Origin: Alistipes sp.
GTDB taxonomy: Bacteria > Bacteroidota > Bacteroidia > Bacteroidales > Rikenellaceae
NCBI GenBank assembly: GCA_017646625.1
Contig: JAGCMF010000033.1
Coordinates: forward strand, 5,237-69,236
DNA: 64,000 bases
Direction: 5' to 3'
A program made the translations under genes and the position numbers. The notes under the pieces were generated by a model, which saw only the letters and a list, made by a program, of their open reading frames with translations, did not search any database and was not told the DNA's origin. Below, in pieces: positions 7,076-57,100 of this stretch; position 1 is the stretch's first letter; the number at the start of each line of letters is the position of its first letter.

Positions 7076-7299
7076 AATGTTGTTGTTAAAAGGTCATTCT
7101 CCGTAAACTTTAACACAACGAGAAGGTGCTCAAAACCCACTTTCGGCTATGCTGCGATACTACTATGGTGGCTACAAAAGGTCTCTTGTGTCATGAGGCG
7201 ACACTATGCACTAACCCTTTAAGCCCAAATATGTAATCCTTGAAATCATCAAGTCGCAGACCAGCCCATTCGCCGCAGGCACAATCTCGTTATAAACGC

Positions 7300-7480
7300 T
7301 TGGCAGGTCTTCTGACTCGTCTCATCCTACGATGCCTTCCCAGGGGTCGCACCCCCAGTGACAATGTGATGTCGTAGAACACTGTGAGACTCACAGCAGC
7401 GGGAACTGTCCGGGATTTTCACCCGATTCCCTTTTAATCTTTGTAGAGGCTATCCACCTCCTAAAGAACCAATGCTGATG
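7300..7480 (-). promoter_or_regulatory. Cobalamin (AdoCbl) riboswitch
   Basis: Minus strand reads TTGGTTC...TTAAAAGGGAATCGGGTGAAAATCCCGGACAGTTCCCGCTGCTGTGAG...GTCACTGGG...CTGGGAAGGC...GAGTCAGAAGACCTGCCA (core plus B12 box), upstream of the btu operon. Confidence 0.95.
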
Positions 7481-7488
7481 CAAAGATA
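7481..7488 (-). promoter_or_regulatory. Bacteroidetes -7 promoter element (TATCTTTG) for the riboswitch/btu operon
   Basis: Matches TAnnTTTG immediately 5' of the riboswitch. Confidence 0.7.
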
Positions 7489-17864: not shown

Positions 17865-18545
17865 CTATCCTATGGTGTGCATGCGTACCGATGCCTTGAT
17901 GAGGGCAATGGCACGTATACGACTTATCTCTATCTCTTTGTCGGCATGGTGCTGATTCTGGCTCACAAGGCGCACATAACCCTCATGCTCCGACTTCTGA
18001 ACATACTTCACGGTGATGTACTCCTCGCCATCGATGTCGATAGATAGTAGGTACATATCGCCCCAGAATACGTCACGCACGTCGTTAAGCTGCTTGTAGA
18101 GGATTATGTCTCCACTCTTGAGTAGCGGATACATCGAGTCGCCCACAACGTATATGGCACCATCGCACTTCGGTAGGTTGGGGATGTGGATGAAGTTGAC
18201 GGGCTTGGCTGTTGATGTCTCGGAGAAGAGGGGTACGAGTCCTGCTGTGCCCTCGATAGAGTATAGTGGCACACTCTGTAGTGGTAGCGACTTGTCTGTG
18301 CGGTGTGTGTAGGGCGTAAAATCTGGCTCTGCATTAAAGATTTTGCCCTTGCCTGTCTCTATCCACTCTGGGTTAACGTTAAAATCTTGAACAAAGATAT
18401 TCTTGTTGCGTGTCGATAGTCCCGCCTTGCCTGTCTCAATCATCGAGAGGGCAGCCTTTCCTATTCCAAGATGTTGAGCTAATTGCTCTTGCGTCATATT
18501 AAGCTCTTTTCGCATAAGTCTTATGCGTTCCCCAATTGTGCTCAT
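17865..18545 (-). CDS. CI/LexA-type repressor (XRE HTH + S24 peptidase)
   Basis: HTH RIRLMRKELNMTQEQLAQHLGIGKAALSMIETG; Ala-Gly site (EGTAGL), Ser in GDSM, Lys in TVKYV. Confidence 0.92.
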   Translation of the reverse strand: MSTIGERIRLMRKELNMTQEQLAQHLGIGKAALSMIETGKAGLSTRNKNIFVQDFNVNPEWIETGKGKIFNAEPDFTPYTHRTDKSLPLQSVPLYSIEGTAGLVPLFSETSTAKPVNFIHIPNLPKCDGAIYVVGDSMYPLLKSGDIILYKQLNDVRDVFWGDMYLLSIDIDGEEYITVKYVQKSEHEGYVRLVSQNQHHADKEIEISRIRAIALIKASVRMHTIG

Positions 18546-18574
18546 ATAAGAAAATGTTATATTAAATAATTGTA

Positions 18575-18626
18575 CAAATCTATTGACAAGGTAAATATTT
18601 GAATGTATATTTGCAGTGCAAAGTTA
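18575..18626. promoter_or_regulatory. Divergent/overlapping promoter switch between the repressor and the terminase operon
   Basis: TAnnTTTG boxes: rightward TATATTTG 18606-18613; leftward TAACTTTG 18626-18619 and TAGATTTG 18582-18575. Confidence 0.55.
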
Positions 18627-18692
18627 AGCAATTTATTTGACTGTGCAAATTTTGACCTTGTTTTTTAATAAATAAACCTACGAAAATCAATT

Positions 18693-19010
18693 ATGTACGA
18701 AACGACAACAAAAATTTACTTTAGGATTGCCGAAGACCTACTCGCGAGAATTGGTACAGGCGACTTCTTCTCTGGCGTGGTGATGGCGTTTGATGAGGAT
18801 GAGGGTGTGGAGTGTAGACTGATATGCACGGTGGTGGTGCATCGTGCCGAGAGAGTGAACGGCCGCTGGGGCATACGACCCATAGAACGTGTGCTGCCGG
18901 TGTGGTGGGAGATGAGGAGCTATCGAGATGGTGTGGAGATAGATAATGACTTCTCGTTCGGAGAGTTGGACTTAACGGGAGGCGATGATGTGTGGTGCTA
19001 TGAAGAGTAG
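18693..19010 (+). CDS. Hypothetical protein (105 aa) in the small-terminase position
   Basis: ORF follows an AT-rich leader; its stop overlaps the terL start (ATG 19000); no recognisable domain. Confidence 0.75.
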   Translation: MYETTTKIYFRIAEDLLARIGTGDFFSGVVMAFDEDEGVECRLICTVVVHRAERVNGRWGIRPIERVLPVWWEMRSYRDGVEIDNDFSFGELDLTGGDDVWCYEE

Positions 19011-20448
19011 TGGTGGTGAGGTTGTCTCAACTGCTGGGGTGGTGCCCACGTTTGAGGAGTTTGCGGGGTGTGTATATCCTTTTTTGGAGTTTACGCCATT
19101 TCATAAGATGTACTATGCCATTCTTGAGGCCTATGCTGTGGGGCGAATATCGAAGCTCATTGTCTCGGTGCCGCCACAGCATGGCAAGAGTGTGGGAGCA
19201 ACGACGCTACTGCCAGCCTATATGCTTGGCATTGACCCAAATATGCGTATTGCCATAGCCTCTTATTCGGGTACGTTGGCCTCGAAGTTTAACCGTCGTG
19301 TGCAGCGAATAATCGAGTCGAGGGAGTATGCCGAGATATTTCCCGAGACGACGATTAAGTGTGGCACGAAGCCCGCGGGTTATATACGCACGTCGGATGA
19401 GGTGGAGATAGTGGGGTATAAGGGTGAACTTATAAGTGTGGGACGTGAGGGCTCGCTGACAGGAAACCGTGTTGACTGCTTCATCCTTGATGACCTCTAT
19501 AAGGATGCTATGGAGGCGCAGTCACCTGTTGTGCGCGATAACTGTTGGGAGTGGTATACATCGGTAGTAAGAACGCGTATGCACAACACGTCGCGCGAAC
19601 TCATTGTCTTCACGCGCTGGCATGAGGATGACCTCATAGGTGTTCTCTGCCGCACCGAGCCCTGTAGGGAGCTTCGTTCCATGGCAGATATTGATGCTGT
19701 GCGCCCCGATGAGTGGCTTGTGTTAAACTTCGAGGCGCTAAAGTCCTCTCCACCTACGGATATAGATCCGCGAGGTGTGGGCGAGGCGTTGTGGCCCGAG
19801 CAGCAGAGTGTCGAGTTGCTGGAGGCGAAGCGCCGTCTCGACCCTGTGCGCTTTGAGGCTATGTATCAGGGACATCCCTCCTCGCGTGAGGGCCTGCTCT
19901 ATGGCGATGGCTTTAGGGAGTATGCCATGTTGCCGCGCGACATTGTCACGAGGGCGTGTTATGTCGACACGGCAGATGTGGGCGATGACTACCTATGTGC
20001 TGTTGCCTATGCTGTCGATACCGATGGGGTGATATATGTCACCGACGTGGTGTACTCGCGTGATGCTATGGAGCATACCGAGCCTTTGGTTGCGGCGATG
20101 CTTGTCAAGGAGGATGTAAGGCGTGCATATGTCGAGAGTAATAATGGTGGTAGGGGCTTTGCTCGTGCTCTCCAGCGTCTTGCGCCACGCATACGCGTAG
20201 AGTGGTTCCATCAGAGTGGTAATAAGGAGGCGCGCATACTCTCCAACTCCGCCACCGTGCTCCATATGGTGCGTATGCCCGAGGGGTGGGCTGTGCGCTG
20301 GCCAGAGTTTTATATGCACCTTACCACCTATCGCCGCCTCTTCCGTGCTAACCGTCATGACGACGCTGCCGATGTGCTCACGGGTATTGTGGAGAGGGAG
20401 GTGCATGACGAGGATTCGGGACGTTGGCAGAAGGCGCGGTTTATATAG
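19000..20448 (+). CDS. terL: Phage terminase large subunit (Terminase_6-like)
   Basis: Walker A VPPQHGKS, Walker B CFILDDLYKD, FTRW coupling motif, nuclease acidic motifs VDTADVGDD and HDDAAD; alternative start 18985. Confidence 0.92.
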   Translation: MKSSGGEVVSTAGVVPTFEEFAGCVYPFLEFTPFHKMYYAILEAYAVGRISKLIVSVPPQHGKSVGATTLLPAYMLGIDPNMRIAIASYSGTLASKFNRRVQRIIESREYAEIFPETTIKCGTKPAGYIRTSDEVEIVGYKGELISVGREGSLTGNRVDCFILDDLYKDAMEAQSPVVRDNCWEWYTSVVRTRMHNTSRELIVFTRWHEDDLIGVLCRTEPCRELRSMADIDAVRPDEWLVLNFEALKSSPPTDIDPRGVGEALWPEQQSVELLEAKRRLDPVRFEAMYQGHPSSREGLLYGDGFREYAMLPRDIVTRACYVDTADVGDDYLCAVAYAVDTDGVIYVTDVVYSRDAMEHTEPLVAAMLVKEDVRRAYVESNNGGRGFARALQRLAPRIRVEWFHQSGNKEARILSNSATVLHMVRMPEGWAVRWPEFYMHLTTYRRLFRANRHDDAADVLTGIVEREVHDEDSGRWQKARFI

Positions 20449-26367: not shown

Positions 26368-26442
26368 CGGGATGTAGCGCAGTCCGGTTAGCGCACCTGC
26401 TTTGGGAGCAGGGGGTCCCAGGTTCGAATCCTGGTATCCCGA
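26368..26442 (+). tRNA. tRNA-Pro(TGG)
   Basis: Full cloverleaf CGGGATG...CCTGC TT TGG GA GCAGG...TTCGAAT...TATCCCG A; upstream TATCTTTG box. Confidence 0.97.
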
Positions 26443-26745
26443 CATTTAACAAGAGCAGACGACTTAAACAAGTCGTCTGTTTTTTTTGTGTCTGCTTTTG
26501 AGCAAGCTCCTCGCAGCCACACCAAAAACCTGGGGCCCGCCTATGGCAGTCCTGCTCTTGTCTTCGTGCTACCGCATTACTCACGATATGCAGGTTGAGC
26601 CGATGTGTTATTGTTTAATGCTCGGTCTACGCCCTGCGCTATTTTTCAAGGTATCGGCTCTACGACTGATGTCGTTCGAATCCTGGTATCCCGACAATCG
26701 ACAAGAGCAGACGACTTAATAAGTCGTCTGTTTTTTTTTGTGTCT
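26422..26745 (+). mobile_element. att-like duplication of the tRNA-Pro 3' end + terminator (26422-26493 and 26674-26745) enclosing a ~180-bp insert
   Basis: 72-nt direct repeats 252 nt apart, each GTTCGAATCCTGGTATCCCGACA...AGCAGACGAC-loop-AGTCGTCTG-T8/9. Confidence 0.75.
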
Positions 26746-26972
26746 CGTTGTCTCGTTGTCCCTTGTGCCCTTTTTCATTCTCGGGTGCCAAAGGGCATAA
26801 AACGTCATAAAAGGGCATAAAAGGTAATGTGTTGTCTTTGTGTCTCTGTGTCTCTGTATCTAACCTTTCTGCCCTTTCTGCCCCTTTCTGCCCTTTTTCA
26901 TTCTCGGGTACCAAAGGGCATAAAACGTCATAAAACGTCATAAAAGGTAATGCGTTGTCTCTGTCTCTCTGT
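26742..26972 (+). repeat. Modular ~70-bp repeat, two tandem copies (26768-26837, 26891-26960) with pyrimidine-rich linkers
   Basis: CCCTTTTTCATTCTCGGGTRCCAAAGGG(CATAAAA-NNN)x3-TAATGYGTTGTCT. Confidence 0.9.
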
Positions 26973-26992
26973 GCTACGATGATGGGGATGAC

Positions 26993-46456: not shown

Positions 46457-46530
46457 GGCTCCGTAGCTCAACTGAATAGAGTACTTGACTACGGATCAAG
46501 CGGTTCCAGGTTTGAATCCTGGCGGAGTCA
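46457..46530 (+). tRNA. tRNA-Arg(ACG)
   Basis: GGCTCCG...CTTGA CT ACG GA TCAAG...CCAGG TTTGAAT CCTGG CGGAGTC A. Confidence 0.95.
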
Positions 46531-46589
46531 CAAGGCGGTAATCGAAAGGTTACCGCTTCTTTTTTTGTTATGCTGTACGATTGTGGACC

Positions 46590-46756
46590 TCGGTCTCTTT
46601 GTCTCTCTGCCCTTTTTCATTCTCGGGGACCAAAGGGCATAAAACGTCATAAAACGTCATAAAAGGTAATGTGTTGTCTCTGTCTCGTTGTCCCTTGTGC
46701 CCTTTCTGTCCTTTGTGCCTTTTTTCATTCTTGGGTACCAAAGGGCATAAAACGTC
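46590..46756 (+). repeat. Modular ~70-bp repeat: full copy 46610-46679, truncated copy 46718-46756
   Basis: Same core as 26768-26960. Confidence 0.9.
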
Positions 46757-46773
46757 GAATTTACGACTGATCC

Positions 46774-47197
46774 CTTATAGTGATGCAAATCACTACATCA
46801 ACAAACGAGAAGTAAGCATATAAAGCAAAAAAAAACAGACGACTAAATGTCGTCTGCTTTAGTAGTCGATAGGGGATTCGGACAGCGGAGCTGAAGAGCC
46901 GATTCGATATTTGCGGAGACACTCTGTGTCGAGCAAAAAACTATTCTCTATCGGCTCAACCCCATTTAAGTGAGCAATTGCCTATCGTATACGATATGTT
47001 TTTGTAAATGCTCGTTTGTTGCATGTGTCGTAGGCTGTAGCTGTTGAGTGGATATGTTTCGAGCTAGCTAGTATACATATCTAATCAACAGCTTATAGTG
47101 ATGCAAATCACTACATCAACAAACGAGAAGTAAGCATATAAAGCAAAAAAAAACAGACGACTAATGTCGTCTGCTTTAGTAGTCGATAGGGGATTCG
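46774..47197 (-). mobile_element. att-like duplication of the tRNA-Glu 3' end + downstream flank (46774-46880 and 47092-47197) enclosing a 211-bp insert
   Basis: 106/107-nt copies identical except one A in the terminator loop; each ends in TAGTCGATAGGGGATTCG (tRNA 3' end). Confidence 0.8.
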
Positions 47198-47251
47198 AAC
47201 CCCTATGTCCTGCGTGAGAGGCAGGTATCCTAGCCCTTAGATGAATCGACC
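47180..47251 (-). tRNA. tRNA-Glu(CTC)
   Basis: Minus strand GGTCGAT...CCTGC CT CTC AC GCAGG...AGGGG TTCGAAT CCCCT ATCGACT A. Confidence 0.95.
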
Positions 47252-48300: not shown

Positions 48301-48420
48301 GAGAGTGAATAAGAAGTGTATTTTGTCGTTACGCTTGCCCTCAAAATGCTCATTTACGCACAGTAAACTCCGCTTTTTCGGGCTTCGCAAGCCTAAAACT
48401 ACATCTTTTTATTCACTCTC
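48301..48420. mobile_element. 120-bp MITE-like element, copy 1
   Basis: TIRs GAGAGTGAATAAGAAGTGTA / TACATCTTTTTATTCACTCTC; 118/120 identical to 60814-60933. Confidence 0.8.
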
Positions 48421-56960: not shown

Positions 56961-57100
56961 GACAAGGGTCATAAAAGGGCAGAAGGGTTAGAGAGACAAA
57001 GAGACAACGCATTACCTTTTATGCCCTTTGGTGCCCGATAATGAATGGGTTGCAAGGGGCAGAAGGGGCAGAAAGGGCAGAAGGGTTATAGAGACAGAAA
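56961..57100 (-). repeat. Inverted copy of the modular repeat (core 57002-57045) with linker modules
   Basis: Reverse complement TTCATTATCGGGCACCAAAGGGCATAAAAGGTAATGCGTTGTCT. Confidence 0.85.

Follow-up and report, generated by a model that had tools for sequence, protein, structure and literature searches.

The window examined here is a 64,000-nucleotide (nt) stretch of DNA from Alistipes sp., in which ARAGORN finds three tRNA genes, for Pro(TGG) at 26368-26443(+), Arg(ACG) at 46457-46531(+), and Glu(CTC) at 47251-47179(-). The Pro and Glu genes are each followed by a short insert bounded by a direct repeat of the tRNA 3′ end, and these two inserts, together with the family to which they belong, are the subject of this report. 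At tRNA-Pro, positions 26422-26487, comprising the last 22 nt of the tRNA and the terminator, recur at 26674-26738 with a spacing of 252. At tRNA-Glu, on the other strand, a repeat of ~110 nt (47092-47200, again at 46774-46883) has a spacing of 317-318, and its two copies consist of 73 nt that are 100% identical and 38 nt that are 97% identical. Repeat included, the inserts measure 252 and 318 bp and leave no room for an open reading frame (ORF).

Just ahead of the downstream repeat copy, both inserts carry the same gapped motif. Read in the tRNA sense, the Pro version consists of GTTGAGCCGAT (26594-26604), 14 nt, TGCTCG (26619-26624), 28 nt, ATCGGCTC (26653-26660), 13 nt, and then GTTCGAATCC at 26674; the Glu version runs from 46960-46950 through 14 nt, TGCTCG, and 26 nt to 46903-46896, followed by 15 nt and CGAATCC. 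The pattern matches twice in the window, against 0.00 matches expected from 100 shuffles. A preliminary description of this DNA had reported the inserts, their direct repeats, and the spaced motif, all of which were reproduced at the same positions. It had also held the rest of the two inserts to be unrelated, which does not stand: both contain the local tRNA 3′ end copied in inverted orientation, a GC(A/G)AGC turn (GCTAGC in the window Glu copy), and a GCAYTRCTCAC box.

The loci follow one order: the 5′ part of the tRNA, the upstream repeat copy (B1), a palindrome center (c), the inverted copy (B′), a spacer of 6-8 nt, a T-stem 5′ strand, TT, the structured motif (M) with its helices P1 to P4, and the downstream repeat copy (B2). 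The tRNA stays intact, with B1 supplying its 3′ end and terminator and the native 3′ end displaced downstream as B2. Coordinates for both window loci are collected in Table 1.

Table 1. Features of the tRNA-Pro and tRNA-Glu loci in window coordinates.
Feature	Position	Strand	Evidence
tRNA-Pro(TGG), intact; last 22 nt (from 26422) and terminator form B1	26368..26443	+	ARAGORN; Rfam tRNA 67 bits
B1 (Pro): T-loop, T-stem 3′ strand, acceptor 3′ strand, terminator 26455-26487, GTGTCT	26422..26493	+	direct repeat
Palindrome center c (Pro): GAGCAAGCTC; conserved GCAAGC 26502-26507	26500..26509	+	best palindrome center between 26504 and 26505
B′ (Pro): diverged inverted B1; inverted terminator ~26529-26554; box GCATTACTCAC 26574-26584	26510..26590	+	54/74 identical, z 4.9 (aligned against the reverse complement of 26422-26504)
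M (Pro): P1 5′ strand CAGG 26591-26594, TT, P2 GAGCCGAT 26597-26604 / ATCGGCTC 26653-26660	26591..26675	+	covariance model 104.8 bits
M (Pro), inner parts: loops TGCTCG 26619-26624 and CTGCGC 26634-26639; hairpins P3 26624-26634 and P4 26662-26675		+	
B2 (Pro): displaced original T-loop and tRNA 3′ end 26674-26696, terminator 26707-26739; contains P1 3′ strand CCTG	26674..26745	+	
tRNA-Glu(CTC), intact	47179..47251	-	ARAGORN; Rfam
B1 (Glu): T-loop to 3′ end, terminator 47145-47174, 53-nt distal segment 47092-47144	47092..47200	-	direct repeat
Palindrome center c (Glu): CTAGCTAGCTCG, variant of the GC(A/G)AGC turn (GCTAGC)	47060..47071	-	
B′ (Glu): inverted diverged B1; box GCAATTGCTCAC 46970-46981	46964..47059	-	77/95 identical to the reverse-complemented left arm, z 5.2
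M (Glu): P1 5′ strand GGGG 46963-46960, TT, P2 46957-46950 / 46903-46896	46883..46963	-	covariance model 83.6 bits
M (Glu), inner parts: TGCTCG 46935-46930, P3 46930-46918, P4 46893-46883		-	
B2 (Glu): T-loop and tRNA 3′ end copy 46882-46862, terminator 46857-46827, distal segment 46826-46774	46774..46882	-	

Family Census, Motif Structure, and Inverted Copy

When a collection with one genome per species was scanned with the bare pattern, at least 120 loci matched; the family figures given here are those among the matches listed. The family comprises at least 51 copies from 45 sources, of which one is the window and 44 are loci; they come from about 40 genomes classed as Alistipes, as Rikenellaceae, or as unclassified Bacteroidota, and share conserved sequence that extends far beyond the pattern. 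A covariance model derived from 51 copies yields at least 54 hits of 60-120 bits, all in the tRNA sense (best antisense score, 20 bits), and also recovers diverged and tandem copies that the bare pattern missed. Another 68 pattern matches, unrelated to the family, mostly from high-GC genomes and without flanking conservation, score at most 18.5 bits with this model and are therefore regarded as chance matches.

The association with tRNA genes is strict. Every listed copy with enough upstream sequence lies behind a same-strand tRNA, 68-630 nt away (mostly 140-250). At least 16 isoacceptors are represented, namely Lys-TTT, Asp-GTC, Phe-GAA, Val-TAC, Leu-TAG, Thr-CGT, Ser-GCT/TGA/CGA, Gln-CTG, Pro-CGG/TGG, His-GTG, Arg-CCT, Glu-CTC, and Met-CAT; some tRNAs are unoccupied, including the window tRNA-Arg and several tRNAs in other loci. 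The units are uniform, gene-less, and 171-364 bp in size, and five loci hold tandem arrays of the form B-c-B′-M (L025, L029, L053, L083, and L060). In every listed copy the right junction lies in the T-loop, where a direct repeat of 8-185 nt begins. The earlier proposal of a small gene-less family at the 3′ ends of many tRNAs is thus borne out. Its interpretation of the repeats as att sites survives in part: the right junction is always the T-loop and the repeat flanks the element, but there is no fixed att core, given the range of repeat lengths and an upstream copy that is element-borne.

M is ~80 nt long, and RNAalifold, applied to 51 copies, folds it, on the tRNA-sense strand, into a three-way junction of P2, P3, and P4 closed by a T-stem-like helix, P1. 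Across the 51-copy alignment, the 4-5 nt preceding TTGAGCC differ from tRNA to tRNA (GGGG, CTGG, CGGG, CAGG) and equal the local T-stem. Since these variable positions pair with the T-stem 3′ strand downstream of TCGAAT, M lies inside a split T-arm, in the order T-stem 5′ strand, TT, M, (T)TCGAAT, T-stem 3′ strand. What had been described as a spaced inverted repeat is instead a three-helix junction that splits the T-arm.

The helices are well supported by covariation. On the consensus structure 97.4% of cells are paired, and changes on both sides of a pair occur in 124 cells versus 43 in shuffles, with none of 500 shuffles reaching 124 and controls with slid partners giving 11-30. P2 (GAGCCGAT/ATCGGCTC) is invariant in the 51 copies; one copy found by the model only (L014:2289-2405) has GCGACGAT/ATCGTCGC in its place, a double compensatory change. 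Conserved unpaired stretches, TTATTGCTCG and CTGCGC, stand on either side of P3. G-U pairs occupy 3 of ~400 cells in P3 and P4 together, and this near-absence fits pairing at the DNA level. For the window Glu copy, the minimum-energy fold is the consensus three-way junction with RNA and DNA parameters alike; for the Pro copy, the consensus fold is reached by the DNA centroid only. As judged from the aligned sequences, the covariation in P3 and P4 argues for folding of a single strand, either single-stranded DNA (ssDNA) or RNA, and not for a duplex protein site. M also has the features of folded att sites, with covarying stems, a few conserved unpaired bases, and conservation on one strand, and it is bordered by the inverted segments B′ and B2, both copies of the local tRNA 3′ end, while the P2 arms form an internal inverted repeat. 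Read by eye, the sequence has GTTGAGC at the 5′ end and GCTCTAC at the 3′ end, the reverse of the attC order RYYYAAC...GTTRRRY, and no dif-like 28-mer was found in it.

Upstream of M, a palindrome extends from the tRNA T-loop to P1 in 41 of 43 loci (z 2.9-16.6; arm identity ~75-85%), and GC(A/G)AGC stands at its center (GC/RAGC, with the slash marking the center) in most of the 43 loci analyzed. The right arm, B′, repeats the local tRNA 3′ end with its terminator and flank in inverted orientation and has decayed. In the full-length alignment this part shows a long hairpin tipped by GC(A/G)AGC, together with an A/C-rich stretch, a further hairpin, and a GCAYTGCTCAC box before P1; the further hairpin is the inverted terminator and the box a degenerate inverted T-loop. 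Sequence complementary to the acceptor 3′ strand can still be clearly recognized at Gln, Leu, Thr, Val, and some Asp and Glu loci; in the window Glu locus, for example, CGATAGG (46981-46987) forms the complement of the T-stem and acceptor 3′ strand. Where B and B′ mismatch (110 vs. 102 transitions), there is no G-U-compatible bias, so nothing suggests that the long arms are maintained as an RNA helix.

Two other accounts of this left part were considered and rejected. Its hairpins, HP1 and HP2, are not independent covarying RNA hairpins, being the center of the inverted duplication and the inverted terminator, and pairing of the hairpin tip (GCAAGC/GCGAGC) with the GCAYTGCTCAC box is not accompanied by consistent covariation across loci. 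The GC(A/G)AGC turn resembles the very stable DNA mini-hairpin d(GCGAAGC). In some copies (L064, L076, and L092) the palindrome tip is flipped, with GCTTGC for GCAAGC, and in L092 B1 and B2 have opposite tips, which suggests inversion or re-synthesis of the hairpin tip. Beyond a normal tRNA-Leu module, L106 (1780-2010) contains an inverted tRNA-Leu 3′ end and a degenerate unit in which a GCAAGC hairpin is accompanied by a P4-like one attached to TTCGAGTCC and the P2/P3 domain is missing; this unit may be a simpler relative or a decayed copy.

Allelic Variation, Spread, and Transcription

Comparison of filled and empty alleles, a check proposed in the preliminary description, revealed a precise empty tRNA-Pro site in a close relative (L121), in which the neighboring protein is 98% identical and the upstream intergenic DNA nearly identical. 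There, tRNA-Pro and the downstream flank are the same as in the window and a single terminator is present, but c, B′, and M are absent and the covariance model gives no hit. Its single trailer is closer to the window B2 than to B1, which indicates that the window B1, the copy completing tRNA-Pro, arrived with the element. Between close relatives, the module is gained or lost whole.

The Glu module is present in L128 (neighboring protein 99% identical) and in L129 (neighboring protein 79% identical). Compared with L129, window DNA is 77% identical upstream of the tRNA and 69% identical beyond B2, as against 100% for the B1 trailer, 96.9% for c, B′, and the box, 100% for M, and 100% and 94.6% for the proximal and distal parts of B2. 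On these alignments, the near-identity of the module indicates that it spread or was replaced recently between lineages as divergent as separate species. L128 has the 53-nt distal B segment in B1 only, so this segment is element-borne and not a target duplication. More distant orthologous loci (L122-L127 and L130-L132) lack either the tRNA or the element.

The crossover can be placed only within the 22 nt common to all alleles, from the T-loop to the acceptor end. In many loci B2 ends right after the T-stem. At L006, L033, L046, L053 (second copy), L037, and L063, the T-loop and T-stem after M match the upstream tRNA and then give way to other sequence; in L006, B2 continues like the 3′ end of tRNA-His. 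Such chimeric B2 junctions suggest exchanges, centered on the T-arm, between different tRNA loci, as far as the junction sequences can tell.

Assembled contigs of public runs, which for RNA have a depth of 2-5x and no strand or end information, were also compared with the loci. An empty-site joint at the Pro locus was not found in the contigs from DNA runs (X1, X4, X5, and X12). Metagenome scans for an empty-site pattern and for a 49-mer of the Glu element gave 0 hits each, which carries no weight because that collection evidently lacks the organism. One metatranscriptome contig (X33, depth 16.8) joins 47103 to 46932, corresponding to a 170-nt deletion at a TTTGC microhomology that removes c, B′, and the 5′ half of M, and so represents a deletion variant of the Glu module in another strain. 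Contigs of metatranscriptomes X26 and X27 extend over the L060 element, whereas the flanking genes have zero depth. Similarly, contigs of 230-347 nt from X32, X34, and X35 lie over the unique part of the window Glu element with little or no flank coverage. The 347-nt contig of X32, an RNA-type run, corresponds to the 318-nt Glu unit in cyclically permuted form (window 46846-47162), but collapse of the 73-nt perfect repeat in the assembly graph can explain it, and it is not taken as evidence for a circle, although a tandem or circular form is possible. Overall, some transcription of the element is likely, with read-through as the presumed source.

Proposed Mechanism and Alternative Explanations

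With modest confidence, we lean toward reading the inserts as a non-autonomous integrative module that replaces the tRNA 3′ end and is mobilized in trans by an enzyme whose gene lies elsewhere; M would be its folded site acting in cis. Integration and excision would proceed by crossover inside the segment from the T-loop to the 3′ end. The responsible enzyme might belong to the tyrosine recombinases, or be a nuclease, of the HUH type or another, that recognizes a T-arm-like structure, and M, as folded ssDNA or extruded DNA, would present the split T-arm to it. Spread between genomes may also occur by homologous recombination via the conserved tRNA and B. A DNA-level role for M is preferred because covariation is strictly Watson-Crick, a strong terminator stands before M, no internal promoter is seen in the element, the layout is palindromic, and the modules show gain, loss, and spread.

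Candidates for such an enzyme were sought around the copies. The 20 kb between the two window loci encode TsaD, TamB, ExbB/D, TrmD, LpxB, a fumarase-class lyase, and similar housekeeping proteins. Pfam scans of 40 of the 48 window ORFs detected neither a recombinase or transposase nor a reverse transcriptase, and ten integrase-sized ORFs adjoining other copies proved to be unrelated host genes. The label "integrase-less" given to these inserts therefore holds in and next to the elements. A search for larger elements with the same end plus an integrase had been proposed as well; no larger element lies between tRNA and M in any of the 45 sources, the motif has 0 matches in 2.9 million viral contigs, and blastn of the insert against phage and plasmid records gave no match. 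Likewise, no related autonomous insertion sequence (IS) with a transposase was found in the locus sequence or in viral, phage, and plasmid records, a search that did not extend to whole genomes.

Several observations weigh against the trans-mobilized module. No trans-acting enzyme was found in the sequences searched, and neither an excised form nor an integration event was observed. The L121 allele could be a precise deletion by homologous recombination between B1 and B2 and not an ancestral empty site, and homologous exchange of the entire tRNA region, in place of site-specific integration, could account for the near-identity of the window and L129. The inverted copy B′, the conserved center c, and the tRNA-matched P1 strand are left unexplained by a classical attP x attB model. 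M is intact in many loci in which the repeat is cut to T-loop and T-stem (8-15 nt), and it is 100% conserved where B′ has diverged; retention of M while the repeat shrinks and B′ diverges looks like selection on M, and fits an RNA or host function equally well. The contigs derived from RNA-seq cover the element and not the neighboring genes. Finally, the invariance of P2 is in part a product of the search pattern, which demanded it.

The chief competing explanation, possible though clearly less probable, is that M and its T-stem-like helix form a structured noncoding RNA produced by read-through of the tRNA transcript, a 3′-trailer RNA with a tRNA-like 3′ part, for which the DNA module is the vehicle. 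Such an RNA could serve the host or the module, and is compatible with mobility. Its helices covary around conserved loops (TTATTGCTCG and CTGCGC) on one strand only, M remains 100% conserved while B′ and the flanks diverge, M and P1 are kept where the remainder of B2 is lost, and metatranscriptome contigs lie over the element in L060 (X26 and X27) and at the Glu locus (X32, X34, and X35). However, a strong intrinsic terminator separates the tRNA from M in every locus, and inspection of the sequence identified no Bacteroidetes-type promoter (TAnnTTTG) inside the element. The motif has no Rfam match at E values up to 10. G-U pairs are nearly absent from P3 and P4, and the B versus B′ mismatches lack a G-U-compatible bias. 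The contigs are of low depth (2-5x) and lack strand and end information, such that DNA carry-over is possible, and no downstream gene is consistently placed for regulation in cis.

A more speculative variant, which we regard as doubtful, concerns the form in which the module moves or replicates: a self-complementary single-stranded circle or closed dumbbell of 250-320 nt, of DNA or possibly RNA. The motivation comes from three features that the other models leave unexplained, namely the inverted target copy, the tRNA-matched P1, and the conserved GC(A/G)AGC. The B/B′ rod, capped by the GC(A/G)AGC mini-hairpin and by the M junction, may home to tRNA T-loops, and the direct-inverted-direct copies and tandem arrays may be the footprint of rolling-hairpin or rolling-circle propagation together with an enzyme that recognizes T-arms. 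If true, the modules would amount to a minimal gene-less replicon in bacterial chromosomes, viroid-like or parvovirus-like.

Two further explanations are very unlikely. The first holds that the inserts are decayed remnants of integrase-bearing islands, integrative and conjugative elements (ICEs), or prophages, similar to cis-mobilizable elements (CIMEs), with the motif as a leftover end. Duplications of tRNA 3′ ends are the classical scars of such elements, and CIMEs retain attL and attR without integration and transfer genes (PMC5704250), much as the repeats are kept and genes absent here. Against this, there are at least 54 copies at 16 or more tRNA species with one compact architecture of 171-364 bp and no gene remnants, and no larger element stands between tRNA and M in the 45 sources. 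Viral contigs and phage or plasmid records contain no match, and the neighboring ORFs are host genes. Independent decay, moreover, would not repeatedly yield the same layout with an inverted copy.

Just as improbable, in our estimate, is an origin of the direct-inverted-direct layout in local template switching during replication at small palindromes, with no mobile element involved and the likeness of M due to descent or gene conversion. The B1-c-B′-M-B2 order does resemble duplication-inverted-duplication products, flipped tips occur (GCTTGC in L064; B1 versus B2 of L092), and the 170-nt deletion variant was mediated by microhomology. Yet the empty site in L121 lacks c, B′, and M, the same c and M recur at 16 or more tRNA species in about 40 genomes, the Glu module is 97-100% identical between genomes with flanks that are 69-77% identical, and B1 has an element-specific trailer. 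Lastly, chance resemblance of unrelated inserts, for which nothing speaks beyond the shortness of the individual words, is refuted by the shuffle expectation of 0.00, by at least 54 covariance-model hits of 60-120 bits that all lie behind tRNAs, and by clean negative controls.

Neighboring Features and Comparison With Known Systems

A second repeat family, consisting of CCCTTTTTCATTCTCGGGTRCCAAAGGGCATAAAACGTCATAAAAGG followed by short repeats of the GTCTCTG type, is found at 26760-26973 (two copies), 46603-46756 (two copies), and 57015-57031. It lies directly beyond both tRNA modules, in a constant absolute orientation that is independent of the tRNA strand, and is missing from the corresponding places in L121 and L129. 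In some gut metagenome runs its depth is several-hundred- to more than 1000-fold, versus ~20-fold in the flanks. This family looks like a separate element of the MITE (miniature inverted-repeat transposable element) or repetitive extragenic palindromic (REP) kind. Another stretch, at ~48327-48400 between a DUF3298 gene and a gene for an HtrA-like protease, reaches 500- to 1200-fold depth in two runs versus less than 25 around it; it has no Rfam match and represents another multi-copy or very abundant element.

Elsewhere in the window, a lone ORF resembling a terminase large subunit (18985-20448) adjoins an HTH/S24 LexA-like repressor (17865-18545) among housekeeping genes; the pair (17865-20448) is a possible small phage remnant or satellite-like cassette. 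A cobalamin riboswitch at 7285-7487(-), scoring 96.6 bits, stands upstream of a cluster with DUF4988/DUF4465, PKD-domain, DUF5074, and TonB-dependent receptor genes, which is probably a locus for B12 uptake.

The preliminary description had suggested comparing the motif with Rfam. In a search of Rfam 15, only the three tRNAs and the cobalamin riboswitch pass the gathering threshold, and nothing on the element does so or is credible at E values up to 10. Literature searches by literal sequence and by keyword returned no description of the family, which is apparently undescribed. Arrays of noncoding RNA associated with the UG27 reverse transcriptase in Alistipes and Bacteroides differ in motifs and context (bioRxiv 10.64898/2026.09.22.753630). 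An inverton or invertible promoter was rejected on the grounds that the strong covariance-model hits, at least 54, are all in the tRNA sense, and a diversity-generating retroelement on the grounds that the scanned window ORFs include no reverse transcriptase and B1/B2 differences are not adenine-specific. The layouts of integron attC, IS91 (GTTC target), IS200/IS605, IS110 bridge RNA, retrons, and permuted or split tRNAs do not fit either.

If the proposed reading is confirmed, the modules point either to an enzyme in gut Bacteroidota that recognizes T-arm-shaped nucleic acid or to a new, abundant class of tRNA-trailer RNA. They explain many "tRNA fragment" scars in Alistipes assemblies, and as dispersed repeats they could drive rearrangements between tRNA loci. 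The covariance model also provides a simple marker of strain-level variation at tRNA loci.

Among known systems, the closest likeness is with genomic islands, ICEs, integrative and mobilizable elements (IMEs), and prophages that use tyrosine integrases, with which the modules share insertion at the tRNA 3′ end, a replacement 3′ end, direct repeats, and filled and empty alleles. Mobilizable elements of the NBU type (non-replicating Bacteroides units) are an example of elements integrating at tRNA genes. Known occupants of tRNA sites bring their own integrase, whereas the modules replace the tRNA 3′ end, and keep the gene intact, by means of only ~200 nt of noncoding DNA. They are gene-less and ~0.2-0.3 kb long, an ~80-nt structured motif before the downstream repeat splits the T-arm, an inverted copy of the target lies inside the module, and one family occupies at least 16 tRNA species. 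As in CIMEs, there are att-like bounding repeats, no integration or transfer genes, and tandem arrays by accretion (PMC5704250). CIMEs, however, arise in varied forms through decay of one particular ICE or IME at a single site; the modules are uniform at many tRNAs and species, and no parent element was found in the records searched.

Folded single-strand recombination sites are known from integron attC and from the attP hairpin of CTX phage, which is recombined by XerCD. M resembles these in that structure is conserved over sequence and in a strand-specific manner, and the inverted segments could rebuild a duplex, target-like site on folding. In contrast to them, M has no GTTRRRY/RYYYAAC in attC order and no dif-like site. 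MITEs and palindromic repeats of the REPIN/RAYT type are small, noncoding, dispersed, and dependent on an enzyme encoded elsewhere. The modules are similarly small, noncoding, hairpin-forming, dispersed, and long-persisting, but they are strictly tRNA-linked and orientation-locked, their repeats of 8-185 nt are not a fixed target duplication, their inverted repeats copy the target and not the element ends, and no partner transposase is known. If M acts as an RNA, trailer-derived small RNAs from the 3′ external transcribed spacer (3′ETS) of tRNA transcripts, such as 3′ETS-leuZ of E. coli, would be its analogue. Unlike M, 3′ETS RNAs precede the terminator and are not mobile, duplicated, or tRNA-mimicking. 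Overall, the family belongs with tRNA-targeting integrative elements and their non-autonomous derivatives, with a non-trivial chance that its mechanism is new.

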